From a bacterium (GTDB lineage Bacteria > Myxococcota_A > UBA9042): DNA of 64,000 nt. This document shows, piece by piece, positions 6,543-53,274 of the stretch. A program made the position numbers and the translations under genes. Position 1 is the stretch's first letter. Every line of letters begins with the position of its first letter. Below the pieces are notes generated by a model. That model did not search any database and was not told where the DNA came from. It worked only from the letters and a program-made list of their open reading frames with translations. The stretch covers positions 3,132 through 67,131 of the forward strand of contig JAUIAC010000001.1 of the NCBI GenBank assembly GCA_030425545.1. Direction: 5' to 3'.

Positions 6543-9500
6543 TCAGCCCTTGGTTGCGCTGCCGTCGAGGCAGTAGCTGAGCTTGTCCATGGCGCCAGAG
6601 CCCTTCAGCGTCACGGTCAGCGACTTCACGCCCTGGGCGCTGCCGAGGCTGAGCGTGAACGCCGCGCCGTTGCCCTTGGCCGGGATCTGCACGGTGGACG
6701 TCTTGCCGTCGGTGTACGTGAGCACCACCGTGCCGCCGGTCTCTTCGATGTCGACGAAGCCGATGCTGTTGACCTTGCTGCCCTTGCTGAAGGTGAACGT
6801 GACCGCCCCGCCGCTGGCCTCGTCGTCCGGGTCGTCGACCAGGCCGTCCTTGGGCGCCGTGTCGTCGTCGTCCTCGGCGATGATGAGCACCTTGCCCCAG
6901 TCGGTCGTGGCCAGATCCGGGTCCCCGCCCGTGGGCTTGGCCGAGTCGAAGGTGATGGCCTTGTCCGGGTGGTTCGAGTTGGCGTTCTTGGCCGACACGG
7001 TGAGCCCCCAGCCGGCGAACTGGTCGGTGATGACCGTGCCCGCGGCGAGGGACTTGCCCTGGCTGTCCGCGTCGAAGTTCACGGTGCGGCAGAGGCCGCC
7101 GCAGTTCGGGATCTGGGTGAACTGGCAGCCGCTCTTGGCGTCGCACTTGTCCACCGTGCAGTCCTCGCCGTCGTCACACGTCTTGGTCTTGCCCGCCTGG
7201 CAGGTGCTGCCGCTGCACACATCGCTGACCGTGCAGGCGTTGCCGTCGGTGCACGCGACGCCGCTCATGGCCTTGTTCTCGCACTTGCTCGTGGACTTGT
7301 TGCAGCTGTCCGCGGTGCAGGCGTTGCCGTCGTTGCAGCTGCTGTCGCAGCCGCTGTCCGAGCCGCTGTCGCTGCTGTCGCTCCCGCCGCTGTCGCTGCC
7401 GTCGCTGCTGTCGCTGCCCCCGCTGTCGCTGCTGTCGCTGGCGTCCGAGCTGCTGGACCCGGAGCCCGACCCCGAGCCAGAGTCTGACTTGTCGCTGCCG
7501 GACTTGTCGCTGCCCGAGCCCGACTTGTCGCTGCCCGAGCCCGACTTGTCGCTGCCCGACTTGTCGCTGCCCGAGCCCGACTTGTCGCTGCCCGAGCCCG
7601 ACTTGTCGCTGCCCGAGCCCGACTTGTCGCTGCCCGAGCCCGACTTGTCGCTGCCCGAGCCCGACTTGTCGCTGCCCGACTTGTCGCTGCCCGAGCCCGA
7701 CTTCTCGCTGGTGCTGCTGCCCGAGCCCGAGTCGCTCTCGTCGTCCTCGCACTTGTTGGTGGCCAGCTTGGTGTGCTGGCAGCCGTACTTGGCGTCGCAG
7801 GTGTCCGCGGTGCAGGGGTTGCCGTCGTCGCAGTCCAGCGCCCCACCCTCGGTCTTGCAGCCGTAGTTCTTGGTGCCGCTGTTGTTGTAGTCGTCGCAGT
7901 CGTCCTTGAGGTTCAGCGCCTCGGTGCGGGCCTGGCCCTGCGGGTCGCTGCCGTAGCCGTGCTTGGTGAGCCAGGCGTCCGCGTCCTTGACCGACTCGGA
8001 GATGCCGTCGTCCTTGCTGCCCTTCAGCAGGTTCAGCTTGGTCGCACACAGCTGCGCGGCGAGGCTCTTGCTCGCGTCCTTGCTCGAGTGCGCCTTGATC
8101 AGCGCGATGGCCTGCGCCTTGGTGTAGGTCTTGGCGCCGAGCTTGATGCTCTCCACCGGCCAGTCGCTCGCGTGGTTCTTCCAGTAGCCGATGGTCTTGG
8201 GCGACGTGCACGAGGTCTTGCCGCCCTGCGCCTTGCACTCCCCGGCGGTGCAGACGTCCGAGCCGTTGCACACGTTGCCGTCGTCGCAGGTGCCGAGCTT
8301 GGCGGTGGTCACGCAGCCCTTGTCCTTGTCGCAGCTGTCCGTGGTGCAGAACTCGCCGTCGTCGCACTGGGTCGCGCCGCCCGCCTTGCACGTGCCCGAC
8401 TTGCACACGTCGCCCGTGGTGCACTTGTCGCCGTCTTCGCAGCTGGCGCCGCTGGCGGCCGCGTGCTTGCAGCCCTGGCTCTTGCTGCAGCTGTCGCTGG
8501 TGCAGGGGTTGTTGTCGTCGCAGCTCACCGCCTTGCCGCCACAGGTCCCCGCCGTGCAGGTGTCGGTGCCGCCCGCGCCGGTGCACGTGTCGCCGTCGTC
8601 GCAGCTGGTGCCGGTCAACGCCTTGTGGGTGCAGCCCGTCGCCTTGTCACAGCCGTCTGCTGTGCAGGGGTTGTCGTCGTCGCAGCTCACCGCCGCGCCG
8701 CCGCAGGTGCCCGCCGAGCAGGTGTCCTTGCCGCCCGCGCCGGTGCACGCGTCGCCGTCGTCGCAGCTGGTGCCGCTCAGCGCCTTGTGGGTGCAACCCT
8801 TGACCTTGTCGCAGCCGTCCGCCGTGCAGGGGTTGCCGTCGTCGCACCCCACGGCCTTGCCGCCGCAGGTGCCAGCCGAGCACACGTCGCTGCCGCCCGC
8901 CCCGGTGCACTTGTCGCCGTCGTCGCAGCTGGTGCCGCTCAGCGCCTTGTGCGTGCAGCCGGTCGCTTTGTCGCAGCCGTCCGCCGTGCAGGGGTTGCCG
9001 TCGTCACACCCCACGGCCTTGCCGCCGCAGGTGCCAGCCGAGCACACGTCGCTGCCGCCCGCCCCGGTGCACTTGTCGCCGTCGTCGCAGCTGGTGCCGC
9101 TCAGAGGCTTGTGCCCGCAGCCGGAGGCCTTGTCGCAGGTGTCGGCGGTGCACGAGTTGCCGTCGTCGCAGCTGTGCTTCTTGCCGGTGCAGCTGCCCTT
9201 GGCGCAGGTGTCACTCACGGTGCAGGCGTCGCCGTCGCTGCACTTGCCGCCCGACACCGGGGTGTTGACGCAGCCGCTCTTGGCGCTGCACGCGTCGGTG
9301 GTGCAGGCGTTGTCGTCGTCGCAGACCACAGCCGCGCCAGGCGTGCACGTCCCCGCCTTGCAGACGTCGCCTGCGTCGCCGCCGGTGCACTTGCTGCCGT
9401 CGTCGCAGGGCGTGCCGCTCAGCGCCTTGTGGGTGCAGCCGCTGGCCTTGTCGCAGCCGTCGCTGGTGCAGGGGTTGCCGTCGTCGCAGCTCACCGCCGC

Positions 9501-12500
9501 GCCGCTCTTGCAGGAGCCCTTGGCGCAGGTGTCGCCGCCGGCGCCGCCGGTGCACGCGTCGCCGTCGTCGCACGCGGTGCCGGTGAGCGCCTTGTGGGTG
9601 CAGCCCTTGGCCGGGTCGCAGCCGTCGCTGGTGCAGGGGTTGCCGTCGTCGCACTGGCTCGCGGCGCCACCCACGCAGGTCCCGGCCTTGCAGGCGTCGC
9701 CACCCTTGGCGCCGGTGCAGGCGTTGCCGTCGTCGCAGGGCTCGCCGGTGAGCGGGCTGCTGGCGCAGCCGGTGGCCTTGTCGCAGGTGTCGGCGGTGCA
9801 GGGCTTGCCGTCATCGCAGCTCACCTTCGCGCCCGCCACGCACACACCCTGGCTGCAGGTGTCGCCGGCGCTGCCGCCGGTGCACGCGTCGCCGTCGCTG
9901 CACTGGGTGCCCGTGAGGCCCTTGTGCACGCAGCCCGTGGCGGGGTCGCAGCTGTCGGCTGTGCAGGGCTCGCCGTCGTCGCAGCCCACGGCCGCGCCAG
10001 GCTTGCACTGCCCCTGGGCGCACGCGTCGCCCTGGGTGCAGGCGCTGCCGTCGTCGCATGCGGTGCCCTTCGCAGCGCTGTGGGTGCAGCCCTTGCTGGG
10101 ATCGCAGCCGTCGACGGTGCAGGGGTTGCCGTCGTCACACGACTTGGCGGCGCTGCCCTTGCAGGTGCCCGCGGCGCACGCGTCCGCCGTGGTGCAGGCG
10201 TCGCCGTCGGTGCAGGCCTTGCCGGTCAGGGCCGTGTGCTTGCAGCCCTGGGTCGCGTGGCACTGGTCCTGGGTGCAGACGTTGTTGTCGTCGCAGCCCT
10301 TCGGCGCGTGGCCCTTGCACACGCCGCTGCTGCAGGTGTCCTTGGTGGTGCACACGCTGCCGTCGTCACAGCTGGTGCCGCTCAGCGCCTTGTGCCAGCA
10401 GCCCTTGCTCGGGTGGCAGCCGTCTGCGGTGCAGGGCTTGCCGTCGTCGCAGCTCTTGGCCGCGCCCGCCGTGCAGGTGCCCGCCTTGCACACGTCGCCC
10501 TTGGTGGCGCCGGTGCAGACGTCGCCGTCGTCGCACTGGGCGCCGGTGAGCGGCTTGTGCCAGCAGCCCTCGCCCGGCGAGCAGCCGTCCTGCGTGCAGG
10601 GCTTGCCGTCGTCGCAGTCGGGTCCGCCAGCGCCCTTGCACTTGCCACTCTTGCAGGCGTCGCCGGTGGTGCAGGCGTTGCCGTCGTCGCAGGGCTGGCC
10701 GGTGAGGGCCTTGGTGACGCACCCCTTGGCCTGGTCGCAAGCGCCCGCGGTGCAGGGCGAGCCGTCGTCGCAGGCGAGCTTGCCCTTGCCCTTGCACGTG
10801 GCGCCGAGGCAGGTGTCCGTGGTGGTGCAGGCGTTGCCGTCGTCGCAGGGCGCCCCCGGCTTGCCGGTGTGGGTGCAGCCCTTGGCCGCGTCGCAGCTGT
10901 CGGTGGTGCAGGGGTTGCCGTCGTCACACGCCTTGGCGCCGCCGCCGGTGCACGTGCCCGCCTTGCACGCGTCGCTCGTGGTGCAGGCGTCGCCGTCGCT
11001 GCAGCTCTTGCCGGTCAGCGCCTTGTACTGGCAGCCCTTGCTGGCGGAGCAGCTGTCCGTGGTGCACGGGTTGCCGTCGTCGCAGCTCTTTTTGCCGCTC
11101 GGCTTGCAGGCACCCTGGGCACACGCGTCGCCCGTGGTGCAGGCGTCGCCGTCGGTGCACGGCTTGCCGCTCAGGTTCTGGTGCTGGCAGCCCTTGGTGG
11201 GGTCGCAGGTGTCCGCGGTGCAGGGCTTGCCGTCGCTGCAGCTCTTGGACGCGCCGCCGACGCACTTGCCGGCGACGCAGTGGTCTACCTTGCCGCCCGC
11301 GCCCGTGCAGGCGTCGCCGTCCGAGCACGCGGTGCCCGTGAGCGGCTTGTTCACACAGCCGGTCTGCTTGTCGCAGAGGTCCTGGGTACAGGGGTTGCCG
11401 TCGTCACAGCTGACCGCACCGGCGCCCTTGCAGGTGCCCGCCTTGCAGGCGTCCCCGCTGGTGCACGCGCTGCCGTCGTCGCAGGCCGGTCCGCTCACGG
11501 CGCTGTGCTTGCAGCCCTTGGCCGCGTCGCAGGTGTCGGCGCTGCATGGATTGCCGTCGTCGCAGACCTTGGCGGTGCCCTTGCAGGTCCCGGCGGTGCA
11601 GGTGTCCGCGGTGGTGCAGGCGTCGCCGTCGCTGCAGGTGCCACCGCTGAGGGCGGCGTGGGCGCAGCCACCCGAGGCGCTGCAGGTGTCGGTGGTGCAG
11701 GCGTTGTCGTCGTCGCAGCTGACCGCCTTGCCGACGCAGGAGCCCTTGGCGCAGGTGTCGTTGGCCGAGCAGGCGCTGCCGTCGTCACAGGCGCCGCCCG
11801 AGGTGGCGACGTGCTTGCAGGCGCCCGCCTTGCTGTCGCAGGTGTCTGCAGTGCAGGGGTTGCTGTCGTCGCACACCAGCGCCTTGCCGGCCTGGCAGCC
11901 CTTGGCGGTGCAGGTGTCGCAGCTGGTCAGGGGCGCGGCCTTGAGATCGACGTTGATGTCGCCGTGGGTCTCGATGGTCTTGCCACCGACGGTGTGCGTG
12001 ACGAAGAACCACGCGGCCGCCCCGAGGGCCTGCGACTTGTTGTTGGCCCCGGCGCCCACCTGGAAGGGGTAGACGCTCTTCTTCGGCATCTGCTTGAGGG
12101 TGATCTTGCCGTCGCCGCCAACCTCGCTCATGGCGCCCGACTCGAGGTCGAAGTAGTGCCAGCTGTCGGTGGCGCCCGCGGGCACCTTCCAGCCATCGTC
12201 GAGCTTCGGCCCGCCGGAGCCCTGGCCCGCCTTGCCCTGGCCACGGTAGTTGAAGGTCAGCGCAACGGTGTAGGGCTTGCCCAGCGGGGCACCCGCGCCG
12301 TCGACCTTGTAGACCTTGGCGGTGCCCGTGAGCGTGGCCTTGCCGGAGGTGAACCAGGTCAGGGTGGCGCCGGGGGCGAAGTGGAGTCGGGCGATGTGGC
12401 CCTTCACGCCGTCGTAGAGGCCGTTGATCCACATGCCGTTGCAGCCGTGGACGGCGGCCTCGGGGCAGTTCATGGCATCGCTGACGTCGTAGAGCGCGCG

Positions 12501-13574
12501 CACGCCCGCGGGGGCGGCGCAGCTCGTGCCAGTGCAGGCGTTGCCGTCGTCACACGTCGCGCCCGGAGCGCTGACATGTGCGCAGCCGGCGGCGCCCTTG
12601 CAGATGTCGGTCGTGCAGGGCTTGCCGTCGTCGCATGGCGCGCCTTCGTCGATGAGGCCGTCGCAGTCGTTGTCGATGCCGTCGCAGACCTCTGCGCCGG
12701 TGGACACGCAGGCGCCGCCGGAGCTGCCGCCGCCGGAGCTGCTGCCACCGGAGCTCGCGCCGCCGGAGCTGGAGCCGCCGCTCGAAGCGCCACCGGAGCT
12801 CGCGCCGCCGGAGCTGGAACCGCCGCTCGACGCGCCACCGGAGCTCGCGCCACCAGAGCTAGCGCCACCGGAGCTGGACCCGCCGCTTGAAGCGCCACCG
12901 GAGCTCGCGCCACCAGAGCTGGACCCGCCGCTCGAAGCGCCACCGGAGCTCGCGCCGCCGGAGCTCGCGCCGCCGCTCGACGCGCCACCGGAGCTGGCGC
13001 CGCCACCGGAGCTCGACCCGCCGCTCGACGCGCCACCGGAGCTCGCGCCACCGGAGCTGGAACCGCCGCTCGAGGAACCACCGGAACTGGCGCCGCCACT
13101 CGACCCGCCACCGGAGCTCGCGCCACCGGAGCTCGACCCGCCGCTCGACGCGCCACCGGAGCTCGCGCCGCCGTCCGCACCGCCACCAGAGCTCGCGCCA
13201 CCACTCGAAGCACCGCCGGAGCTCGCGCCACCGTCCGCACCGCCACCGGAGCTGGCTCCGCCGCTCGACGCGCCGCCGCTCGAAGCACCGCCGTCCGCAC
13301 CGCCGCTGGAAGCGCCACCTCCCCCGTTGCCGTCGCTCTGGTTCCACCCCCCCGCGCCGGCCTGGCCGTCCTCGTCGTTCCCTGCCGAGCCCTTGCCGCC
13401 CGTGCCCCCACCGCTCGACGCCGCGGCGTCCTCCTCGCTCAGGGCGCCGGGCCCGCCGTTTCCGGATGCGGTGGCGTTTGCGCTCGGGTCGGACAGGTCG
13501 TTGCCGCAGGCGCTGAGCAAGCTCAACGTTGCGACCAGCGATCCGATCCTGAGCATGCGGCTGAAACTGAACAT
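6543..13574 (-). CDS. giant (about 2340 aa) secreted lipoprotein with tandem myxobacterial-type Cys-rich repeats
   Basis: Probable start ATG at 13574 gives MFSFSRMLRIGSLVATLSLLSAC GNDL (signal peptide plus lipobox). A long (GGASS)n Gly/Ser linker follows, then an N-proximal non-repeat domain. There are roughly 40 tandem copies of an approximately 37-40 aa unit C-DDGNPCT-D-C-x4-GC-H-x5-G-x-C-DG-x-CT. A central non-repeat domain (TIGYWKNHASDW...) follows, then an acidic SGSDKSG tract of 21-bp nucleotide repeats and a C-terminal roughly 190 aa non-repeat domain. Confidence 0.8.
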   Translation of the reverse strand: MFSFSRMLRIGSLVATLSLLSACGNDLSDPSANATASGNGGPGALSEEDAAASSGGGTGGKGSAGNDEDGQAGAGGWNQSDGNGGGGASSGGADGGASSGGASSGGASSGGGADGGASSGGASSGGASSGGGADGGASSGGASSGGSSSGGASSGGGSSGGASSGGSSSGGSSSGGASSGGASSGGSSSGGGASSGGASSGGASSGGASSGGASSGGSSSGGASSGGASSGGSSSGGASSGGASSGGASSGGSSSGGASSGGASSGGSSSGGASSGGSSSGGGSSGGACVSTGAEVCDGIDNDCDGLIDEGAPCDDGKPCTTDICKGAAGCAHVSAPGATCDDGNACTGTSCAAPAGVRALYDVSDAMNCPEAAVHGCNGMWINGLYDGVKGHIARLHFAPGATLTWFTSGKATLTGTAKVYKVDGAGAPLGKPYTVALTFNYRGQGKAGQGSGGPKLDDGWKVPAGATDSWHYFDLESGAMSEVGGDGKITLKQMPKKSVYPFQVGAGANNKSQALGAAAWFFVTHTVGGKTIETHGDINVDLKAAPLTSCDTCTAKGCQAGKALVCDDSNPCTADTCDSKAGACKHVATSGGACDDGSACSANDTCAKGSCVGKAVSCDDDNACTTDTCSASGGCAHAALSGGTCSDGDACTTADTCTAGTCKGTAKVCDDGNPCSADTCDAAKGCKHSAVSGPACDDGSACTSGDACKAGTCKGAGAVSCDDGNPCTQDLCDKQTGCVNKPLTGTACSDGDACTGAGGKVDHCVAGKCVGGASKSCSDGKPCTADTCDPTKGCQHQNLSGKPCTDGDACTTGDACAQGACKPSGKKSCDDGNPCTTDSCSASKGCQYKALTGKSCSDGDACTTSDACKAGTCTGGGAKACDDGNPCTTDSCDAAKGCTHTGKPGAPCDDGNACTTTDTCLGATCKGKGKLACDDGSPCTAGACDQAKGCVTKALTGQPCDDGNACTTGDACKSGKCKGAGGPDCDDGKPCTQDGCSPGEGCWHKPLTGAQCDDGDVCTGATKGDVCKAGTCTAGAAKSCDDGKPCTADGCHPSKGCWHKALSGTSCDDGSVCTTKDTCSSGVCKGHAPKGCDDNNVCTQDQCHATQGCKHTALTGKACTDGDACTTADACAAGTCKGSAAKSCDDGNPCTVDGCDPSKGCTHSAAKGTACDDGSACTQGDACAQGQCKPGAAVGCDDGEPCTADSCDPATGCVHKGLTGTQCSDGDACTGGSAGDTCSQGVCVAGAKVSCDDGKPCTADTCDKATGCASSPLTGEPCDDGNACTGAKGGDACKAGTCVGGAASQCDDGNPCTSDGCDPAKGCTHKALTGTACDDGDACTGGAGGDTCAKGSCKSGAAVSCDDGNPCTSDGCDKASGCTHKALSGTPCDDGSKCTGGDAGDVCKAGTCTPGAAVVCDDDNACTTDACSAKSGCVNTPVSGGKCSDGDACTVSDTCAKGSCTGKKHSCDDGNSCTADTCDKASGCGHKPLSGTSCDDGDKCTGAGGSDVCSAGTCGGKAVGCDDGNPCTADGCDKATGCTHKALSGTSCDDGDKCTGAGGSDVCSAGTCGGKAVGCDDGNPCTADGCDKVKGCTHKALSGTSCDDGDACTGAGGKDTCSAGTCGGAAVSCDDDNPCTADGCDKATGCTHKALTGTSCDDGDTCTGAGGTDTCTAGTCGGKAVSCDDNNPCTSDSCSKSQGCKHAAASGASCEDGDKCTTGDVCKSGTCKAGGATQCDDGEFCTTDSCDKDKGCVTTAKLGTCDDGNVCNGSDVCTAGECKAQGGKTSCTSPKTIGYWKNHASDWPVESIKLGAKTYTKAQAIALIKAHSSKDASKSLAAQLCATKLNLLKGSKDDGISESVKDADAWLTKHGYGSDPQGQARTEALNLKDDCDDYNNSGTKNYGCKTEGGALDCDDGNPCTADTCDAKYGCQHTKLATNKCEDDESDSGSGSSTSEKSGSGSDKSGSDKSGSGSDKSGSGSDKSGSGSDKSGSGSDKSGSGSDKSGSDKSGSGSDKSGSGSDKSGSDKSDSGSGSGSGSSSSDASDSSDSGGSDSSDGSDSGGSDSSDSGSDSGCDSSCNDGNACTADSCNKSTSKCENKAMSGVACTDGNACTVSDVCSGSTCQAGKTKTCDDGEDCTVDKCDAKSGCQFTQIPNCGGLCRTVNFDADSQGKSLAAGTVITDQFAGWGLTVSAKNANSNHPDKAITFDSAKPTGGDPDLATTDWGKVLIIAEDDDDTAPKDGLVDDPDDEASGGAVTFTFSKGSKVNSIGFVDIEETGGTVVLTYTDGKTSTVQIPAKGNGAAFTLSLGSAQGVKSLTVTLKGSGAMDKLSYCLDGSATKG
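7470..7740. repeat. about 12 tandem copies of a 21-bp unit (GACTTGTCGCTGCCCGAGCCC) encoding (DKSGSGS)n inside the giant gene
   Basis: Near-identical 21-mers are directly visible on the + strand between about 7487 and 7720. Confidence 0.85.
12690..13330. repeat. 15/18-bp nucleotide-level tandem repeats encoding the (GGASS/GGSSS)n linker of the giant lipoprotein
   Basis: Reiterated CCGCCGGAGCTCGCGCCA-type units over about 640 bp, translating to GGASSGGASSGGSSS... Confidence 0.8.
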
Positions 13575-14213
13575 GGTGCCCCCCCTGGGGATTCGACCTC
13601 CGGACGGACCGGTGGCATGAGCGATGAATAGAGCATGCCAAATCTCGCAAGCAACGTAAAAGCCGAATATCAAACGACTTTGAGTTTCTCAGGGGCTCGG
13701 AGACCCCGGCGCACAAGATCCACAGAATCCGACTGAATTCCAATCTGTTACGCCGAAATTTCGCTGCACAACCATCGCCCACGCTCGGCGCCCCGAGAGC
13801 GCACGCTCTTCACACAGCGGCGACTGTTCATCTGGGCAAGGGTCCAACGAGAGCCCCTGGAATGTGCGGGGTTTGCGGCCGCCGCTGGGACACCTTTCGG
13901 TGTCTTGTCGGCCCGGGTGATTGCAAAGCCCACGAAATGAGGGCTGTCTGAACGAAACTCGTCATTTGTCTAGTAGACGCACGACCAGCTCTGTGATTGG
14001 AAGGCCGGTATTATCCCCAAGTGTGGGGTAGCCGTCAACAACTATCATGACGAGTTGACCGATAGCGCGACGCGACAGCCCTGATTCGGGGACTTCGAGC
14101 TCCACGCTCCAGATCTGAGCGCACGATCATGCGCTCACACATCTTCATATTCAGCCGTTTCGCTTTCCATCTAGTGCCTTATGACTCCGCAGAGCTTCAG
14201 CCCCCGCGCGGCG
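13575..14213. promoter_or_regulatory. 640-bp intergenic island of markedly lower GC between the two giant genes (presumed promoter/leader of the 6543..13574 gene)
   Basis: The stretch 13620-14160 is visibly AT-richer than the roughly 70% GC surroundings. It contains the near-DnaA-box-like TTATCCCCA and a short hairpin CCCCAagtgTGGGG. No convincing ORF. Confidence 0.4.
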
Positions 14214-17200
14214 TCACTTCACCCACACCTCAACCGCGCCGATGGGCCACGCGTACCAGATGGTGCTCGCCATGCCGGTCGACTGAACCGAGAGCGCCAC
14301 AGACGGCCCCGTGTGCGCCACCTGATAGTCGGCCAGCAACGCGTGCATGTTGCCGAGCGCCGGCGAGCAGGTGCCCGCCGCCTTGGGGTTGCTCGAGCCG
14401 GTGACCACCGGCAGGCCACCGAGGCCGCCGTTGAACATCAGCGTCCCGTTGAGGTGGATCTTCGCCGACGCCCAGTTCTTGTAGGTGCTGTTGGGTGTGG
14501 TGATGTGATAGCGAAAGCGCACGCGCACCGCGGTGTGCGCCTGCGGAACGTCCAGCGCGCCGTTGAGCGTGACGGTCTTGGTGCCGCTGCCGTACTTGAG
14601 GCTGATCGCAGGCGGGTTCCACATCTTGGCCTGGCCGAGACCGCCGCTGCAGCTCATCACACTGCCGGGTCCCCACGAGTTCGTCGCGCGCGTGACGCCG
14701 TTGGTGTACAGCCGCTTGAAGCCGCCCGCCTTCATGTCGCACCACTCGCGCTTCGGGTTCTTGCCGTCCTTGTCTTCGTCGAGCCAGGTCCACCCGACAA
14801 AGGTGTCGAGCTTGCCGCCGGCGGCGTCCTTGGCGGCGACGCACGACGACGCAGGCGACAGCGAGGTGCAGCCGACATAGGCCTTGCCGCCCACCTTGCA
14901 GGCGCCGCCGCCACAGATGCCGGGGCCGAGGGGGACGCAGACCTCGCCGTCCTTGCACACGGCGCCGTCGGCCAGCGCGGTGAACACGCAGCCTTTGACC
15001 TTGTTGCAGGTGTCGAGTGTGCACGGCTGGTGGTCGTTGCACGTGACCGACTTGTGCTTGCACCCCGCCGACTTGTCGCAGGTGTCGACCGTACAGGCGC
15101 TCTTGTCGTCGCAGTCCACCTTGGTGTGCTTGCAGCTGCTGTCAGCCTCGCAGGTGTCCGTGGTGCAGGCGCTGCCGTCGTTGCAGACGGGCTTGAGCGG
15201 GAAGGTGCAGCCTGCCTTCTCGCCGCCGCCCGCGGTGACGTTGCACAGGTTGTGGGTGCAGCTCCGTTTGTCGTCGCACACCACGGGCGCGTGGGTGCAG
15301 CCCTTGACCTTGTCGCAGGCGTCTGTGGTGCAGGCGTTGCCGTCGTCGCACGATCGCGCCGTGTGGGTGCAGCCGGCGCCCGGGGCGCAGCTGTCGGTGG
15401 TGCACGCGTTCTTGTCGTCGCAGTCGGAGGGGTCCACGCCCTTGCACAGCCCGGCCGCGGTGCAGGGGGCGAGCCCCCACGGCCCGGTGCGCGCGACGGT
15501 CGTCTTGCGCTTGCCGTCCTGCGCGATGGCCCAACCGCCGATGAGGACCCCGTCGTCGCCGGCGCCCAGCGCCCAGGTCGACGCGACGTTGCCCGCGTCG
15601 AGGTCGCGGGAGAGCAGCGGCTGCCCGCCGGGCTGCGTGAGGAAGAGGCGCACCTTGTGGTTGACGCCAGCCCCCCACTTCGCGACGAAGGCGAGCCCGT
15701 CTTGGGGGCCGGTGGCGGCGAGCACCGTGGCGCCGGCGTTGAGCTCGGCGGTGGTGACCACAGACTGCAAGGCGCCTGATTTTCCGGCGAAGCCGACCAC
15801 CACGAGGCGTCGCTTGGCCGTGGTCGACGTGGTCCAGCCCGCGGCGCGCACGTCGTTGCCCGAGTCGACCCGCGCGGCGCGCAGGGTGATGCCCGTGAGG
15901 CCGGGCGGCGACACGACCCACTGGGCGGTCCCGTCGGGCGCGAGCAGCGTCGCGAAGCCACGGCCCCCGCCGCTGCCTACGGCGACCCACCGGCCGTCCG
16001 ACGCGGCGGCCATGCGCGAGGGCCACGCGGCCGCGCCGCCCACGGCCGGAAAGTCCTTGCTGGCCACCACGGCGTAGCTGGTGTTGCGGCGGAAGAAGCG
16101 ATAGCGAATGGCGTAGCCCAACGAGCCGTCAGCGGCCTCGGCGATGGCCTGAATCCCGCCCTCGGTGCTGCCCACCTTCTGCTTCCAGTTCAGGGTCGAG
16201 AGCGCTGTGCCGTTGACGTCGGTGCGCACGATGAAGCTGGAGCGGCCGTAGCCGTTGGCCGAGGTCTGCTGCTGGTAGCCGGCCCAGATCTCGCCGTTCT
16301 TCCGCTCGAGCAGCCACTTGTTGGTGCCCTTGAACGAGTGCGGGTCGGGAGAGGTCAGCTTGCGCTGCCACACCAGGCTGCCGGTGTGGTCGAGACGACG
16401 CACCGTCGCCAGCGAGCCGTTGTAGGGGTACTTGGCGTACTGCGACGCCTGCTGGTGGCCAAAGACCACGGAGCCTCCGTCACTGGTGCCGCGGATGGCC
16501 CCGACGCCGGCGTGGACGCGCCACGCCTCGGTGCCCGTCTCCCACGGGTAGAGCCGAGACCAGAGCTCGCCGTTGGGGTCGGCCTTGCACTTGCCCGCCG
16601 CACACACGCCCTGCACCGCGCAGCCGTCTTTCGGGTCGCACACCAGGCCCTCGAGGGTGGTGTGCAGACACTTGCCCGACTTGGGATCGCAGCGGTCGAG
16701 GGTGCAGGGGTCGCTGTCGTCGCAGCCCGCAGCCGCGATGGTGGCGCAGGCCCCGGCCGACTCGCAGGTCTGCTGACCCCAGGGCGACATGCGGCTGACA
16801 AACGCCCGCTGCAGCGCGGCCGTGCGCGTGCCAGCGAGCAGCAGCCCGCCGTCCATGGCGTGAACGCCGCGGAGCACGACGCTGGGCTTGCTGCCAGCGC
16901 CGGCGCCGTCGATCTGGGTGAAGTTCTGCTGCCACACCGGGTTGCCGATCGGATCGGTGAGCATCGCCCACGCGTCGAGCCCCCCGCTGCCGTCGGGCGC
17001 GCTGCCCGACACCATCAGCTGACCCGAACCGTGCAGGTACATGCCGTGGATCGCCGCCGCGCCGGGCGAGACCCGCTGCCACAACACCTTGCCCTGCAGG
17101 TCGGTCCGCAGCAGCCAGTAGTGCGTGCCAGACCCGTCGGTCGTGTGTCCGGCCGCGGTCAGCCGCGCGCTGGGCTGAGCGACGACCGCTCGGAGCCGCG

Positions 17201-20200
17201 CGTCGGTGCTGGCCTTGTTCGGCGCCAGGTTCTTGCGCCAGAGCACGGCGCCGGTCGCGCCCACACGGGCCAGCAGCCCGCGGCGCACGTCGCCGGCCAT
17301 CTTGCCGCTCTGCCCCGCGACGACGGTCTGGTTGGCGCCGGTGTGGTCCACCGCGTCGGCGACGTCGCCGGCGAGGCCAGGCAGCAGCTTGGCAGCCGAG
17401 AGGTGCCCAGAGGACGACAGCCGCATCCACGGCACGCGCGTCACGCCCTGGTCCACCGCGCTGCCGACGACCACCGCCCCCTTGTCCGGCATCAGCGCCG
17501 ACGCGCGGCCCTCGACACCGCTCCACTTGCCGTGCTCGCGCAGGGCCACGCTCTTGCCCGCCTTGTCGAGGCGTACGAAGAGCACCGCAGGCTTCCCCGC
17601 CACCGTGGTGGTCCCCGTCGCCAGGGTCCCCCCAGCGTCGAGCGGATGCACGGTCCACACCCGCACCGCGTCCGAGGGCGTCGTCGCCTTGTGGCTGAAC
17701 GACCACAGCGGCTTGCCCGACTTCCCCAGGGCCTGAACCCACGCGTAGGCCGCGCTGACCGCGCCCTGGTTGAGCACGTGGCGCGCGCCGCCGACCACCG
17801 CGCTCCCCCCGCTGCCGTCGGCCGCGTTCAGCTCGTAGGCCTCGCCCGTCTTGCCCTGGCTCCAGGTCCAGAGCCGCTTGTCCTTGCCCGGCTGGCAGCT
17901 GCCGTCCTTGCACAGGCTACCGATCGTGCAGCTGGCGCCGTCGTCACACGGGGCACCGTCCACGTCCCCCACGACCAGGCACTTGTACGCCGTCTGCCCT
18001 TCGGACTTGCACACAGCCTTCTCGCAGTGCTTGGTCACGATGGTGCACTTGATCGTCGAGCCCACCTTGCACACGCCCTTGCTGCACGTGTCGTTGACGG
18101 TGCAGCCGTCGTTGTCGGCGTTGCAGGCGGTGCCGTCTCCGAGCACGGTCGCAAAGTCGCACTGCCCGGTCTTCGGGTGGCACTTGTCCACGGTGCAGGA
18201 GTTGCCGTCGGCGCAGTTCTGCTGCTTGTGCACACAGCCGAGCTTCTTGTCGCAGAGGTCGATGGTGCAGGCGTCATTGTCGGCGCAGTCCGCCTTCACC
18301 GGGCCCACGCACGCGCCGCTGTCGCAGCTGTCCTGAGCGGTGCACGGGTTGTCGTCGTCGCAGGCCTTGCCCTTGGTCACGGGCTGCAGGCCGCACTTGC
18401 CCGACTTGGCGTTGCAGGCGTTGACGAGGCACTGGGTGTTGGCCGTCTGCGGGCAGTGCACCTTCGAGCTCGGGTTGGGCTTGCAGGCGTACTTGCCCGG
18501 CACGCTCTTGTCGCAATAGGGCACGCCGTTGCACAGGTCGCCGTCGTCTTGCGCGAGGCAGTCGCTGTCGCTCTGGCAGGTGCAGGTGAAGGTGCCACCG
18601 ACGCACTTGCCGTTGCCGCAGGTGTCGTTCGCGGTGCACTTGTCCCCGTCGTCGCACAAGGTCTTGTCCGCGAGCTTGGCCAGGTAGCAGGCCCCGACCT
18701 TCTTGTCGCAGGTGTTCTTGATGCAGGCGCTGTCGCCCGCCGTCGGGCACACCACCACCGACGCCGGGTTCGGCTTGCACACGTGCTTGCCTGGGGTCGA
18801 GGTGTCGCAGTAGGGCACGCCGTTGCACTTGTCGCCGTCGTCTTTGCTCAGGCAGTCGCTGTCGCTCTGGCACTCGCACACGTTCGTGCCGCTGCACTCG
18901 CCGCCCTTGCAGACGTCGCTGCTGGTGCACGCGTCGCCGTCGTCACACCCGGTCTGCGTCGCGAGCTCGGCCAGGAAACACGCGCCCGTCTTGGGGTCGC
19001 AGGTGTTCTTGATGCAGGCGCTGTCGTCGCCCTTGGGACACACCACCACCGACGCCGGGTTGGGCTTGCACACGGGAAGCGCGCCCGACGTGTCGCAGTA
19101 GGGGACGCCGTTGCACTTGTTGCCGTCGACGTCGACGCAGTCCGAGTCGGTCTTGCACGCGCAGGTGTAGGTCCCCGAGACGCAAGATCCGGCAGCGCAG
19201 AAGTCGCTCTTGGTGCACACGCTCTTGTCGTCACAGGCGGCGCCCTCGTAGGTCGCCGTGTCCATCTTGCACTGACCGGTGGCCTTGACGCAGACGTTCT
19301 TGCGGCACGCGTTGTCGCCCGCTGACGGGCAGGTGACCACGGTGGCCGGGTTCAGCTCGCACTTGCCGAGCAGCTTGTTGCAGAAGAGCGTGCCGTTGCA
19401 CTGGTCGCCGTCCTCTTCGCCCGCGCAGTCCTTGTCCGACTTGCAGTAGCAGGTGTAGGTGCCCGCGGCGCACTTGCCGCCCTTGCAGAGATCCCCCTTG
19501 GTGCAGGGGTCGCCGTCGTCGCACGGGGTCAGCGACTTGTCGGTGACCGGCACCAGGGTGCACGCCGCCTCCTTGGGGACCTGCTTGCCCGCCTTGGTCT
19601 CGTACAGCGTCTTGCAGGTGTTCTGCGCGCAGGCGGTGTCATTGGTGTCTGGGCACACCTTCACCGTGGCGGGGTTGACCTGGCACAGGCCGTTGACCTT
19701 GTTGCAGAAGAGCGTGCCGTTGCAGAGGTCGCCGTCGCCGTTCTTGGCCTCGCACTCCGCGTCCGACTTGCACACGCAGGTGTTGGTGCCGGGGACGCAC
19801 TTGCCGATGAAGCAGGCGTCGCCCGTGGTGCACTTGTCGCCGTCGTCACAGGCCGTGCCACCGGCGGTGGGCACCAGCTCGCACTGGCCGGTCTTGGGCT
19901 GGCAGGCCGCCTTGGCGCAGGCCGTGTCGTTGCCGTCGGGACAGCTGACCACGGTGGCCGGGTTGACCTTGCACTTGGGCGCGACCTTGCCGTCGCCGCC
20001 CTTGTGCTGGGTGTCGCAGTAGAGCGTGCCGTTGCAGAGGTTGTCGTCGTCCACCAGCGCGCAGTCCGCGTCGCTCGCACAGGTGCACACGTTGACCTTG
20101 GCCTCGCACACGCCGCCCTTGCAGGCCTCGTTCTTGGTGCAGGCGTCACCGTCGTCGCAGGGGGTGGCGTCGGGCTGAGTCTGAGTCGCGCAGCTGCCCG

Positions 20201-20762
20201 TCTTGGGGTTGCAGGTCTCGCTGGCGCAGGGGCCACCCTCGCCCTTGCAGGTGACCACGGTCGCCGGGTTGACGCGGCACGACCACGGGAACTGATCCTT
20301 GTCGCAGAAGAGGGTGCCATTGCAGAGGTTGCCGTCCTCCTTGGCGGTGCAGTCGGCGCTGGTGACACAGCCGCAGAAGCTGAGCGATCCAGGCGTGCAG
20401 ACCCCCGCCTGGCAGGTGGCGGAGACCGTGCACGGGTCGCCGTCGTCGCACAGGGTGCCCTTGGGGCGCGGCGTGGTCTCGCACGTGCCCGTGGCCGCGA
20501 CGCAGCGCTCGTAGGTGCACGGCGTGTCCTTGCTCGGGTCACAGTCGCAGCTGGCCACGTCGAGCTTCGCGCTGCTGTCGGTCCCCCCTCCCGTGTCGAG
20601 CGGAGCGCCCGTGTCGAGGGCCGCGCCGGTGTCGGTGGCGCCGACGACGTCTCCGAGCGCGGCGTCCGCCCCGCCGGTCGGCGCCTCGTCTTCACATCCG
20701 GGCTGGGTCGCCAACATCACCAACAGCCCCCAAAACGGGGCCAACTGCCGTACGCGAGTCAT
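14214..20762 (-). CDS. giant (about 2180 aa) secreted (lipo)protein with two classes of Cys-rich repeats and two Trp-rich non-repeat domains
   Basis: Probable start ATG at 20762 gives MTRVRQLAPFWGLLVMLATQPGC... (signal peptide). There are about 9 copies of an approximately 80 aa unit (...C-x-SD-DC-x5-DGNLCNGTLYCD...C-x-NPATVV-CP...). Two approximately 400 aa W/G-rich non-repeat regions look beta-propeller-like. C-terminal CDDxNxCTxDxC repeats are of the same class as the neighbouring giant gene. A roughly 230 aa non-repeat domain sits at the C-terminus. Confidence 0.8.
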   Translation of the reverse strand: MTRVRQLAPFWGLLVMLATQPGCEDEAPTGGADAALGDVVGATDTGAALDTGAPLDTGGGTDSSAKLDVASCDCDPSKDTPCTYERCVAATGTCETTPRPKGTLCDDGDPCTVSATCQAGVCTPGSLSFCGCVTSADCTAKEDGNLCNGTLFCDKDQFPWSCRVNPATVVTCKGEGGPCASETCNPKTGSCATQTQPDATPCDDGDACTKNEACKGGVCEAKVNVCTCASDADCALVDDDNLCNGTLYCDTQHKGGDGKVAPKCKVNPATVVSCPDGNDTACAKAACQPKTGQCELVPTAGGTACDDGDKCTTGDACFIGKCVPGTNTCVCKSDAECEAKNGDGDLCNGTLFCNKVNGLCQVNPATVKVCPDTNDTACAQNTCKTLYETKAGKQVPKEAACTLVPVTDKSLTPCDDGDPCTKGDLCKGGKCAAGTYTCYCKSDKDCAGEEDGDQCNGTLFCNKLLGKCELNPATVVTCPSAGDNACRKNVCVKATGQCKMDTATYEGAACDDKSVCTKSDFCAAGSCVSGTYTCACKTDSDCVDVDGNKCNGVPYCDTSGALPVCKPNPASVVVCPKGDDSACIKNTCDPKTGACFLAELATQTGCDDGDACTSSDVCKGGECSGTNVCECQSDSDCLSKDDGDKCNGVPYCDTSTPGKHVCKPNPASVVVCPTAGDSACIKNTCDKKVGACYLAKLADKTLCDDGDKCTANDTCGNGKCVGGTFTCTCQSDSDCLAQDDGDLCNGVPYCDKSVPGKYACKPNPSSKVHCPQTANTQCLVNACNAKSGKCGLQPVTKGKACDDDNPCTAQDSCDSGACVGPVKADCADNDACTIDLCDKKLGCVHKQQNCADGNSCTVDKCHPKTGQCDFATVLGDGTACNADNDGCTVNDTCSKGVCKVGSTIKCTIVTKHCEKAVCKSEGQTAYKCLVVGDVDGAPCDDGASCTIGSLCKDGSCQPGKDKRLWTWSQGKTGEAYELNAADGSGGSAVVGGARHVLNQGAVSAAYAWVQALGKSGKPLWSFSHKATTPSDAVRVWTVHPLDAGGTLATGTTTVAGKPAVLFVRLDKAGKSVALREHGKWSGVEGRASALMPDKGAVVVGSAVDQGVTRVPWMRLSSSGHLSAAKLLPGLAGDVADAVDHTGANQTVVAGQSGKMAGDVRRGLLARVGATGAVLWRKNLAPNKASTDARLRAVVAQPSARLTAAGHTTDGSGTHYWLLRTDLQGKVLWQRVSPGAAAIHGMYLHGSGQLMVSGSAPDGSGGLDAWAMLTDPIGNPVWQQNFTQIDGAGAGSKPSVVLRGVHAMDGGLLLAGTRTAALQRAFVSRMSPWGQQTCESAGACATIAAAGCDDSDPCTLDRCDPKSGKCLHTTLEGLVCDPKDGCAVQGVCAAGKCKADPNGELWSRLYPWETGTEAWRVHAGVGAIRGTSDGGSVVFGHQQASQYAKYPYNGSLATVRRLDHTGSLVWQRKLTSPDPHSFKGTNKWLLERKNGEIWAGYQQQTSANGYGRSSFIVRTDVNGTALSTLNWKQKVGSTEGGIQAIAEAADGSLGYAIRYRFFRRNTSYAVVASKDFPAVGGAAAWPSRMAAASDGRWVAVGSGGGRGFATLLAPDGTAQWVVSPPGLTGITLRAARVDSGNDVRAAGWTTSTTAKRRLVVVGFAGKSGALQSVVTTAELNAGATVLAATGPQDGLAFVAKWGAGVNHKVRLFLTQPGGQPLLSRDLDAGNVASTWALGAGDDGVLIGGWAIAQDGKRKTTVARTGPWGLAPCTAAGLCKGVDPSDCDDKNACTTDSCAPGAGCTHTARSCDDGNACTTDACDKVKGCTHAPVVCDDKRSCTHNLCNVTAGGGEKAGCTFPLKPVCNDGSACTTDTCEADSSCKHTKVDCDDKSACTVDTCDKSAGCKHKSVTCNDHQPCTLDTCNKVKGCVFTALADGAVCKDGEVCVPLGPGICGGGACKVGGKAYVGCTSLSPASSCVAAKDAAGGKLDTFVGWTWLDEDKDGKNPKREWCDMKAGGFKRLYTNGVTRATNSWGPGSVMSCSGGLGQAKMWNPPAISLKYGSGTKTVTLNGALDVPQAHTAVRVRFRYHITTPNSTYKNWASAKIHLNGTLMFNGGLGGLPVVTGSSNPKAAGTCSPALGNMHALLADYQVAHTGPSVALSVQSTGMASTIWYAWPIGAVEVWVK

Positions 20763-20931
20763 CGGGTTCTCCAGCGCGAGTGAGGGGTGCCAAACGGTAC
20801 AACATCCTGGCGCGCCGCGAACGATCTGAAGCGCAGCGAGGCCCATTCCACCCGCCGAACAAACTCTCCCCACGACCCCGCCCGGTGGGTTAGGCTGCGG
20901 CGCAGCCCAGCTCGATCCAGGAGACACACGC

Positions 20932-24710: not shown

Positions 24711-25556
24711 CTACCTGGTCGGCGCCGGCCGCGGCGGGGCAGCCGGCGGGGTCGGCTTGGTGCGGACGGGGGGCGCCGCGTTGGCGGGCGCGGCCTTCTT
24801 GGGCTGGAAGCGAGCTGGGATGGTGCCGCCCTGCTCGGGGTTGTAGCGCTTGTGGAACGCGCTGTAGCGGCCCTTGGTCTTCTTCAGCTGGCGTCGCAGC
24901 CCCTGCAGCGTGTGCAGCGGGATCTTGCGCGACGCCGCCTTGACCAACCAGGCCGGTAGCCAGCCGCCCGGGTCGCTGTAGACCTGATAGGTCGTCCGAA
25001 TCTGCCCTGGCTTGAGCAGCTCGAACTTGAAGAAGCCGCGCATCTTGGTCATGCGCACGACGCCGCTCTTCGGCGGGACATGCCCGCGCACGGCGCGAAA
25101 GGGGCTGCGGACGATCTTGCGCACCGGGTCCACGGTCACCGAGCCCTTGAACACCATGTCGCGGTCGCTCACGGGCCAGGGAGAGTCCAGTCGGTGGTAC
25201 ATGAGCCGGTCGAACTCGTTGTACTTCTTGATGATGCGCATGACCTTGCAGCTCGCCTGCCACTCGCAGTGACGGGGCGCGTCGTCGAGGATGGCGAGCA
25301 GGTCGAAGATGCCGCAGTTCAGTACGGTCACGCCGCGAAACTCCGGAAAGTCCTGACCCGGGATGTCACGAGCGGAGACACGGACCCCGTCCTCGGTGAA
25401 CACGTGGCGCCACGCCGGACGGGGCGCGGCCTGGGCAGAGGTGGCCACAAGGGAGAGCAGGGACAGCCACAGGAGTCCCCGCCGGCAGGCTGCGCCGCTC
25501 GGGAGCAGCGGGCTCCGGGCCTCCACCTGGCGTGGAGCGAAGGTTCGACGGCACAT
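24711..25556 (-). CDS. secreted START/SRPBCC (lipid-binding) domain protein with Pro-rich C-terminal tail
   Basis: The N-terminal signal peptide (...LLSLVATSAQA) is followed by ...FDRLMYHRLDSPWPVSDRDMVFKGSVTVD...WLVKAASRK..., which looks like a START-domain beta-grip. Assignment by eye only. Confidence 0.5.
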   Translation of the reverse strand: MCRRTFAPRQVEARSPLLPSGAACRRGLLWLSLLSLVATSAQAAPRPAWRHVFTEDGVRVSARDIPGQDFPEFRGVTVLNCGIFDLLAILDDAPRHCEWQASCKVMRIIKKYNEFDRLMYHRLDSPWPVSDRDMVFKGSVTVDPVRKIVRSPFRAVRGHVPPKSGVVRMTKMRGFFKFELLKPGQIRTTYQVYSDPGGWLPAWLVKAASRKIPLHTLQGLRRQLKKTKGRYSAFHKRYNPEQGGTIPARFQPKKAAPANAAPPVRTKPTPPAAPPRPAPTR

Positions 25557-25752
25557 GGCGAGCTCCTGGGTGCGCGGGTCGAGCGACGCTGTAGCACATC
25601 CACGGCGGGGGATGCGGTGGGTGGCGGAGAATCACGACCTCGCCGGCGCGCTTTCAGTTGGCGGACACACGCTGCTATGCTGCCGCGTCCCGACTCCCCC
25701 ACAACGCCGCGGCCCCCCTCCACCGAACCCGGCGAGAGCAACGCAGACCTAC

Positions 25753-51141: not shown

Positions 51142-51148
51142 GGGCTTC

Positions 51149-53218: not shown

Positions 53219-53274
53219 CCAACCTCCGGAGCCGCAGGACGGATCGCCGGACTAGAGCTGTCATCGACAGCGCG

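Follow-up and report, generated by a model that had tools for sequence, protein, structure and literature searches.

Two adjacent genes for giant cysteine-rich proteins with predicted lipid anchors and candidate binding domains in a Myxococcota_A genome

Two giant genes on the minus strand

The window analysed here is a stretch of 64,000 nucleotides from a bacterium of the GTDB lineage Myxococcota_A; UBA9042 (GenBank assembly GCA_030425545.1, contig JAUIAC010000001.1, positions 3,132 to 67,131 of the forward strand), and it contains two adjacent minus-strand genes, here called P1 and P2, for giant cysteine-rich proteins of the lipoprotein type (Table 1). Before the choice of start codon the uninterrupted open reading frames (ORFs) cover 6543..13673 and 14214..20945, both on the minus strand; in each, the start was placed at the first Met that precedes a signal peptide, and the Met of P2 is also aligned with the starts of its orthologues. 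No stop or frameshift is found across 7.0 kb of P1 and 6.5 kb of P2, and the strand is backed by Pfam (Dicty_CTDC, E = 4.9e-138 in P1 and 8.5e-24 in P2) and by orthologues. A sequence-only reading of this DNA had proposed two co-oriented giant genes and had named stops or frameshifts as the mark of pseudogenes; the gene pair, with the coordinates given for it, is borne out by the ORFs, by the GC content at third codon positions (GC3), by Pfam and by the orthologues, and both frames are unbroken in the assembled sequence. P1 has 225 Cys residues and P2 173, and without the Cys of the predicted lipobox the numbers are even (224 and 172), as they should be if every one of these residues is paired in a disulfide outside the cytoplasm. 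No further CTDC-type ORF occurs anywhere in the window.

Long antisense ORFs lie on the plus strand within P1 (7773-12890 and 8188-12072, up to 1705 aa, GC3 0.96). Their translations are rich in Pro, Ser and Leu and have no family support, and they were therefore rejected as genes and regarded as artefacts of GC-rich repeat DNA, which a naive gene caller could take.

Table 1. Features of P1 and P2, the spacer between them and the divergently transcribed gene. Positions refer to the window, residue numbers to the proteins. TRF, Tandem Repeats Finder; AF2, AlphaFold2; CBM, carbohydrate-binding module.
Feature	Position	Strand	Description and basis
P1 gene	6543..13574	minus	2343 aa, giant Cys-rich lipoprotein-type; intact ORF, GC3 0.945, Dicty_CTDC 448.7 bits
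P1 signal peptide, lipobox LSAC (Cys23)	13506..13574	minus	MFSFSRMLRIGSLVATLSLLSAC followed by GNDL; +2 Gly, +7 Asp
P1 24-288, Gly/Ser/Ala low-complexity tether (GGASS-type)	12711..13505	minus	composition; TRF period 15/30/75 nt over 12711-13304
P1 289-352, MopE-like CDGIDNDCDG motif and two CTDC units	12519..12710	minus	PF11617 24.9 bits, PF00526
P1 353-552, N-proximal globular domain	11919..12518	minus	no Pfam model; homologue search
P1 553-1790, CTDC array, 22-23 units	8205..11918	minus	unit alignment, TRF, PF00526
P1 1791-1900, TIGYWKNH domain	7875..8204	minus	no Pfam model; 36 homologues
P1 1901-1943, single CTDC unit	7746..7874	minus	best-scoring Pfam stretch, residues 1914-1936
P1 1944-2075, Ser/Gly/Asp/Lys linker (SGSDK-type)	7350..7745	minus	composition; TRF period 21/57 nt over 7486-7710
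P1 2076-2159, three CTDC-like units	7098..7349	minus	motif scan
P1 2160-2343, C-terminal CBM/lectin-like beta-sandwich	6546..7097	minus	predicted fold; many conserved acidic residues
P2 gene	14214..20762	minus	2182 aa, giant Cys-rich lipoprotein-type; intact ORF, GC3 0.941, orthologues
P2 signal peptide, atypical lipobox QPGC (Cys23)	20694..20762	minus	MTRVRQLAPFWGLLVMLATQPGC; Cys23 invariant in orthologues
P2 24-70, spacer		minus	about 47 aa
P2 71-800, seven 97-aa units, family-defining stalk	18363..20552	minus	unit alignment; TRF 291 nt
P2 801-960, CTDC block conserved family-wide	17883..18362	minus	>60% covered in 119/120 homologues
P2 961-1335, predicted beta-propeller 1, ~7 blades	16758..17882	minus	AF2, Foldseek
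P2 1336-1398, CTDC linker between propellers	16569..16757	minus	motif/homologue coverage
P2 1399-1765, predicted beta-propeller 2, ~7 blades	15468..16568	minus	AF2; orthologues only
P2 1766-1960, CTDC block, ~7 units	14883..15467	minus	Pfam, motifs
P2 1961-2182, C-terminal beta-rich domain	14217..14882	minus	AF2 pLDDT 60-90
Intergenic spacer	13575..14213		639 bp, GC 0.58-0.63 vs ~0.70 elsewhere
Divergent gene	20932-22749	plus	Cu2_monooxygen N and C domains, CSSCH haem-binding motif at residue 89, Cys-rich tail

Repeat families

The repeats of both proteins match Pfam family PF00526 (Dicty_CTDC, the Dictyostelium slime mold repeat), P1 with 448.7 bits over 25 stretches and P2 with 83.5 bits over seven, both above the gathering threshold of 27 bits and in multiple tandem copies. 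They had been taken for the myxobacterial type TIGR02232 (myxo_disulf_rpt, a model of a cysteine-rich acidic repeat of 38 positions with a cut-off of 20.8 bits), largely restricted to myxobacteria and with units of about 38 aa and six Cys. This identity is ruled out, as no NCBIfam model matched whole P1 or P2, and none matched the excised repeats at E <= 10 in a run in which a canonical CGxGxxExGEECDDGN myxo_disulf_rpt sequence scored 144 bits against TIGR02232; Pfam instead assigns the class to the Dictyostelium family, and it is therefore not restricted to myxobacteria.

The units are also longer than had been described. The array of P1 consists of 22-23 tandem units of 51-56 aa with eight Cys each and has a DNA period of 162/324 nt (unit alignment, TRF), every unit being composed of two CTDC-like halves of about 26 aa, A (CDDGNPCTxDxCDxxxGCxH) and B (CxDGxACTxxDxCxxGxC). 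Units 18-21 (8523-9170, minus strand) are the newest duplicates, with 81-91% DNA identity and nearly identical protein sequence, and are hence the likeliest spot for an assembly collapse or for strain variation in copy number; given units this similar and exact repeats 80 nt or more in length, the copy number may be uncertain if the assembly is a short-read one. The stalk of P2 is made up of seven tandem copies of a different unit, here called the 97-aa repeat, which is 95-108 aa long (not about 80), has 14 Cys and a DNA period of 291 nt (unit alignment, TRF), and follows the pattern CDDGDxCT..C..GxC..CxC..DxDC..DGxLCNGTLxC..C..NPATVVxCP..C..C.PKTGxC. No Pfam or NCBIfam model covers this repeat, and the best match in a profile search of PDB, fibrillin cbEGF, is not significant (E = 0.014). 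Besides these units P2 carries three CTDC blocks.

Globular domains of P1

Three globular domains interrupt or follow the repeats of P1, and in profile searches none of them has a Pfam model or a sequence relative in PDB. They lie where the sequence-only reading had put them and are independent of the repeats, the C-terminal one being a predicted beta-sandwich and the other two recurring in unrelated architectures. Absent from that reading were the two long Ser/Gly linkers (residues 24-288 and 1944-2075) and the MopE-like motif; the latter, at about residues 293-310, reaches 24.9 bits against PF11617 (E = 2.4e-5), below the cut-off of 27 bits, which the relatives P0131, P0142, P0204 and P0207 exceed.

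A search of 1.84 billion proteins for the N-proximal domain gave 294 cluster representatives at E <= 1e-3, of which 78 reach E <= 1e-10. Proteins of about 230 aa contain it once, and giant proteins up to four or more times. Its partners include MopE motifs, a sorting tail of the type IX secretion system (T9SS) and a putative adhesive domain with CBM2, all in secreted proteins, and also CTDC arrays and the P1-type C-terminal domain. The TIGYWKNH domain, about 110 aa with the invariant motifs GYWKN..W and D.YNN, has 36 homologues, mostly as the C-terminal domain of small, secreted SdrD-B-like proteins of about 285 aa; the named carriers among proteins P0157-P0199 are from Anaerolineae, Armatimonadota and Thermoanaerobaculia, and in profile searches of PDB only their SdrD-B part was matched. 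Forty-five proteins contain the C-terminal domain, usually with two copies in tandem in a protein of about 500 aa; one of these proteins is named Planctomycetota. Judged by the architectures of their homologues, all three domains are independent mobile extracellular modules. No full-length orthologue of P1 was found, and P1 itself is absent from the protein collection; P0122, P0121, P0142, P0131, P0205 and P0235 each have some of its modules, and a metagenome scan with residues 1785-2343 gave matches chiefly to the low-complexity linker. P0131 (809 aa, ENA) resembles a small P1 lacking the CTDC array, with MopE motifs, an N-proximal domain, DUF7467, an acidic CBM-like domain and a second N-proximal domain, an order suggesting that N-proximal and CBM-like domains work together.

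The AlphaFold2 model of the C-terminal domain, made from an alignment of 46 sequences, has a predicted local distance difference test (pLDDT) score of 90.9 and a predicted template modelling (pTM) score of 0.87, and it is an all-beta sandwich with the jelly-roll topology of CBMs and galactose-binding-like domains. Foldseek matched it to CBM32, CBM6, CBM29, CBM4, F-type fucose lectins and discoidin II at E of about 1e-4, and the best structural match is a module of a giant RTX adhesin of Aeromonas salmonicida (PDB 9q5u). The fold is that of CBM61, CBM22, CBM4, CBM6, CBM32, F-type lectin and DUF4465/BtuJ, but the resemblance is at the fold level only (6-18% identity), and a relation at the sequence level was not found, with no Pfam CBM match and no PDB chain recovered by profile search. 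The family has motifs of its own, FDSxNPTGGDxDL and DDPDDE, and its many invariant acidic residues are likely to form a Ca2+ or ligand site.

Propellers of P2 and the P2 family

The two large domains of P2 that had been described as propeller-like are beta-propellers by structure prediction and Foldseek. In the AlphaFold2 model of residues 983-2182 (15 sequences, mean pLDDT 78.5) the first domain scores about 90, the second 70-90 and the C-terminal domain 60-90; both large domains are all-beta, with about 26 strands in the modelled part of the first and about 29 in the second, corresponding to about seven four-stranded blades each. The best Foldseek match is the propeller of CylK (E = 9e-15, target TM-score 0.45), and others are the tandem-propeller sensors BT4663 and BT4673, AIP1, Sec12 and the lectin CV39L. 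From these models we are confident that P2 carries two beta-propellers of about seven blades. Residues 961-1335 and 1399-1765 fold like CylK and like the periplasmic domain of BT4663, which likewise has two tandem propellers, but identity to these proteins is 10-16%, kinase or catalytic partner domains are missing, and the P2 propellers are placed on a Cys-rich stalk.

The two propellers have no significant similarity to each other in BLASTP. Homologues of the second were found only in P0002, P0003, P0200 and P0201, with a partial match (residues 3-171) in the locus L001 of P0004, and a homologue search with the concatenated heads, meaning the globular domains beyond the stalk, returned three proteins. 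The C-terminal domain is restricted to five orthologues among the homologues compared and has no match in Pfam or, by profile search, to a PDB sequence; a fibrinogen/COLFI-like nature, suspected from the motif CDMxxGG, is unsupported by these searches.

P2 is identical to the database protein P0001, from an NCBI-derived contig of 94.7 kb, and has three colinear orthologues, P0002-P0004, with 40-43% identity over 91-97% of its length, and two partial ones, P0200 and P0201. All Cys residues, including Cys23, are invariant in the alignment of P0001-P0004, in which overall identity is 40-47%, and the heads of orthologues are 27-55% identical. More than 2639 protein clusters belong to the P2 family at E <= 1e-5, a lower bound since only 8000 candidates were scored, and nearly all members are unnamed or called 'hypothetical protein', with a few called 'cysteine-rich repeat protein', 'RCC1 family protein' or 'C-type lectin domain-containing protein'. 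The 120 top homologues all have the stalk of 97-aa repeats, as do 79/79 loci, and 119 of the 120 have the CTDC block that follows it. The globular segments of 120 aa or more beyond the stalk number 253 and form 72 clusters, and the propeller-1 type is the largest of these (126/253); precomputed Pfam assignments add RCC1, FGE-sulfatase/C-type-lectin-like, beta-helix, DUF5122 and COLFI/fibrinogen heads.

A scan of GTDB, with one genome per GTDB species and with the genome of the window outside the set, yielded 523 or more related loci. Of these, the 79 best are from 19 metagenome-assembled genomes (MAGs), up to 11 from a single one (HK-STAS-MYXO-50), and these MAGs are titled Myxococcales, Myxococcota or Deltaproteobacteria and derive from lakes, groundwater and activated sludge. 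By these comparisons P2 is a member of a large paralogous family with a constant stalk and variable heads in uncultured Myxococcota-type genomes.

Several loci (L002, L005, L008-L011 and others) are in MAGs titled 'uncultured Enterobacteriaceae' or 'Enterobacterales' (binchicken_*, SRP319275_co3_164) that carry many high-GC giant genes of the Myxococcota type, and these titles look like placeholder or wrong taxonomy. At locus L081 the P2 orthologue P0201 (10001-14680) lacks the N-terminal stalk and is preceded on the same strand by an ORF of 609 aa (8134-9963) without a Pfam match; the two may be parts of a single gene that a frameshift or a fault in assembly has divided.

Signal peptides and predicted sorting

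Both proteins start with a lipoprotein-type signal peptide ending at Cys23, in agreement with the sequence-only reading. That of P1 has a positive n-region, a hydrophobic h-region and the box L-S-A-C, which conforms to the pattern [LVI][ASTVI][GAS]C used to define a lipobox. The box of P2, Q-P-G-C, is non-canonical at -3 and -2, and its orthologues have FAGC, ALAC and LPGC. Most members of the P2 family have a signal peptide that ends in a lipobox-like xxxC with G, S or D as the next residue, and a strict regular expression detected a lipobox-like pattern in at least 77 of 116 members.

The sorting residues are Gly at +2 and Asp at +7 in P1, and Glu at +2 and Thr at +7 in P2. In Myxococcus xanthus, Lys at +2 is associated with retention at the inner membrane and Ala at +7 with the extracellular matrix (PMC3222651), and under these rules the outer membrane would be the destination of both P1 and P2. 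No MYXO-CTERM tag or PA14-like variable domain was detected in either protein with NCBIfam and Pfam, and neither C-terminus (...SYCLDGSATKG and ...GAVEVWVK) has a hydrophobic tail.

Relationship between P1 and P2

An ancient duplication followed by divergence of the domains had been proposed for the two genes, and this proposal is unsupported. In BLASTP the proteins align in the Cys-rich repeats only (best high-scoring segment pairs 27-42% identical, driven by Cys and CDDGxxCT), with no globular domain or linker in common, and the 97-aa repeat is missing from P1. No P1-like gene was found at the P2-orthologue loci L001, L080 and L081, nor were the other neighbours in the window found there. 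The low GC content of the spacer agrees with the AT-rich island noted earlier, and on the minus strand the spacer has a sigma-70-like site (TTGACG-17-GATAAT, 14038-14010); no terminator-like site and no Rfam match were detected in it. Since only the Cys repeats are common to both proteins and the three orthologue loci lack a P1-like neighbour, neither duplication nor an operon is supported, and with the promoter-like site in the spacer a functional pairing is not supported either. We conclude that P1 and P2 are separate transcription units whose adjacency is incidental, and not diverged tandem duplicates.

Next to the P2 orthologues, the genes at L080 7523-9877 and L081 4461-7991 encode Cys-rich/adhesin-like proteins (DUF4215 + Fibrinogen_C; MopE + Kelch). 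Surface-protein genes may tend to cluster, though the P1-P2 pairing itself is not conserved.

Proposed function and alternative explanations

On the basis of fold and domain context we consider it moderately probable that P1 and P2 are independently transcribed giant extracytoplasmic proteins, anchored by an N-terminal lipid, stalked and ligand-binding, which act at the cell surface or in the matrix. Each protein would be exported by Sec and acylated at Cys23 by Lgt/Lsp, and its N-terminus would then be tethered to a membrane, with the outer membrane or cell surface the likeliest site, or the protein would be handed over to the matrix. After the anchor a flexible spacer, which consists of 265 aa of Gly/Ser in the case of P1 and has about 47 aa in that of P2, would lead to a long rod of small disulfide-locked modules, about 50 CTDC half-units in P1 and seven 97-aa units with CTDC blocks in P2, keeping the globular ligand-binding heads distant from the anchor. 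The heads of P1 would be the N-proximal domain, the TIGYWKNH domain and the distal CBM/lectin-like beta-sandwich, which probably binds Ca2+, and those of P2 the two propellers of seven blades and the C-terminal beta-rich domain. Their ligands may be glycans or further surface polymers, belonging to the matrix, to particles or to other cells, so that the proteins would serve as adhesins or matrix organisers. Such a role is favoured by the Dictyostelium repeat family, by a layout reminiscent of TraA and by the RTX-adhesin match of the P1 head, and lipidation, surface location and ligand binding are predicted on the same kind of grounds.

A giant repetitive extracellular protein with binding heads is a known kind, and several systems can be compared. 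The CTDC proteins of Dictyostelium are secreted or extracellular matrix proteins that form large variable families (PMC4931340). EcmA, EcmB, PsiA and others have, like P1 and P2, tandem arrays of the PF00526 repeat of about 24 aa, but the Dictyostelium proteins are eukaryotic, lack a lipobox and have partner domains such as PA14, whereas the partners in P1 and P2 are propellers, a CBM-like sandwich, the 97-aa repeat and Gly/Ser tethers. The surface receptor TraA of M. xanthus has a recognition head, cysteine-rich repeats and a terminal sorting anchor (PMC13184517). It differs in its C-terminal MYXO-CTERM tag, its N-terminal variable domain, another repeat family and a far shorter length, and its polarity is opposite to that of P1 and P2, which have an N-terminal lipobox and distal C-terminal heads. 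RTX adhesins are substrates of type I secretion systems (T1SS), with Ig-like repeats stiffened by Ca2+ and with RTX motifs. No Pfam match to RTX nonapeptide, Ig-like extender or T1SS families was obtained for P1 and P2 (E <= 0.01 for the whole proteins, E <= 10 for the excised domains), and in comparison with RTX adhesins their stiffening would come from disulfides and their anchoring from lipid.

Several points weigh against lipid-anchored, ligand-binding surface proteins. The lipobox of P2 is atypical in sequence, the sorting rules are taken from a distant relative, and the residues at +7, where Ala favours the extracellular matrix, would argue for retention in the membrane over release. The best match of the modelled propellers is an enzyme, and no fold could be assigned to the C-terminal domain of P2 from its model.

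The +7 residues and the CTDC repeats also bear on whether the proteins are released structural components of a matrix or sheath, cross-linked into polysaccharide like EcmA and EcmB and not adhesins held by the cell. PF00526 is common to the Dictyostelium matrix proteins, certain lipoproteins are exported to the extracellular matrix by M. xanthus (PMC3222651), and the CBM-like head could bind exopolysaccharide, with polysaccharide synthesis genes elsewhere in the window; but the +7 residue is not Ala in P1 or P2, the N-terminal lipobox is kept across the family and no cross-linking or polymerisation domain was identified in the two proteins, which leaves release a small though appreciable probability. 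Lipoproteins that Lol delivers to the outer membrane face the periplasm in the classical model of Escherichia coli, and no dedicated surface-export system adjoins the genes, so that P1 and P2 might lie in the periplasm, facing inward from one of the two membranes. We infer that the periplasm would hardly accommodate a rod in which rigid disulfide modules make up more than 1200 residues, together with its heads, and as the homologues of the CTDC, CBM-like and N-proximal domains (the last with T9SS and CBM2 partners) are all in extracellular contexts, a periplasmic location is quite improbable.

For P2 an anchored enzyme may also be considered, with one or both propellers catalytic like that of the Friedel-Crafts alkylase CylK and with a stalk that merely positions them. 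CylK is the top Foldseek match, and some family members have FGE-sulfatase-type or beta-helix domains, but the identity to CylK is only 16% and is confined to the propeller (the N-terminal domain that CylK presumably has beside it falls outside the match), the non-enzymatic sensor BT4663, AIP1 and the lectin CV39L match equally well, and no Pfam enzyme family was matched in P1 or P2; catalysis is accordingly a distinctly improbable function. Still less credence is given to polymorphic receptors for self or kin recognition, in which a head would bind the identical head on a neighbouring cell. TraA, a Myxococcota surface protein with a variable domain and cysteine-rich repeats, offers a precedent, and the P2 family has variable heads and many paralogues; however, the MYXO-CTERM tag and PA14-like variable domain looked for in NCBIfam and Pfam are missing, and the variation appears to consist of whole-domain swaps among paralogues and not of allelic polymorphism of one domain. 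Pseudogenes, or artefacts from the assembly of repetitive GC-rich DNA, are a barely credible explanation: the 162-nt repeats are up to 91% identical, exact repeats of at least 80 nt could mis-collapse in a short-read MAG, and the long antisense ORFs show how readily such DNA yields spurious frames, but the two ORFs are unbroken with a very strong Pfam signal, the orthologues from other assemblies are colinear with invariant Cys, and the AlphaFold2 folds are confident.

If P1 and P2 are lipid-anchored proteins with binding heads, they would represent a very large class of uncharacterised bacterial surface proteins, with thousands of clusters, in which a disulfide-locked extender of the Dictyostelium type replaces Ig-like/RTX repeats and a lipid anchor replaces T1SS retention. 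Full-text literature searches gave no description of an N-terminal lipid anchor combined with a CTDC/97-aa disulfide stalk, shuffled heads, several domains that lack a family model and massive expansion of paralogues in uncultured Myxococcota. More tentatively, the P2-type proteins, with at least 10 paralogues per genome, might be an undescribed and massively expanded repertoire of surface receptors with which uncultured Myxococcota of freshwater, groundwater and sludge recognise prey, particles or matrix polymers; the lipid-anchored stalk would be constant, with a module common to the matrix proteins of Dictyostelia, and the heads would be exchanged through shuffling of domains. This is a doubtful proposal; if true, the common stalk module would imply transfer between kingdoms or convergence between two classic lineages of aggregative multicellularity. 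Five modules are without a Pfam or NCBIfam model, namely the 97-aa repeat with 14 Cys, the N-proximal, TIGYWKNH and acidic CBM-like domains and the C-terminal domain of P2, and new family models made from them would improve the annotation of Myxococcota MAGs and guide studies of attachment to prey, particles or the cells' own matrix.

Neighbouring genes

The surrounding genes are of an ordinary chromosomal kind. On the downstream side of P1 they encode a TonB-dependent receptor, Lgt, an M18 aminopeptidase and an OPT transporter. On the upstream side of P2 are the divergent Cu2-monooxygenase/CxxCH gene, a Na+/H+ antiporter, a START protein and a glycosyltransferase of the PMT_2 type, and no dedicated secretion system adjoins P1 and P2 among the annotated neighbours. 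The divergent gene had been read as a copper monooxygenase/cytochrome c, in accordance with its Cu2_monooxygen domains and CSSCH motif, and its product is itself lipoprotein-like (...LATAGAC). The PMT_2-type protein (1251 aa, 25357-29112, plus strand) also has a PIG-M-type mannosyltransferase domain and is encoded 4.6 kb from the start of P2; that it O-glycosylates Ser-rich linkers like those of P1 is pure speculation.

Farther along the window are genes for the F1Fo ATP synthase, OmpA, FHA/T2SSE ATPase proteins, ThiG, GT4 glycosyltransferases and a flippase. The FHA proteins are two adjoining ones (49693-53251, minus strand), one of which is fused to a secretion ATPase of the T2SSE type, and they are apparently unrelated to P1 and P2.

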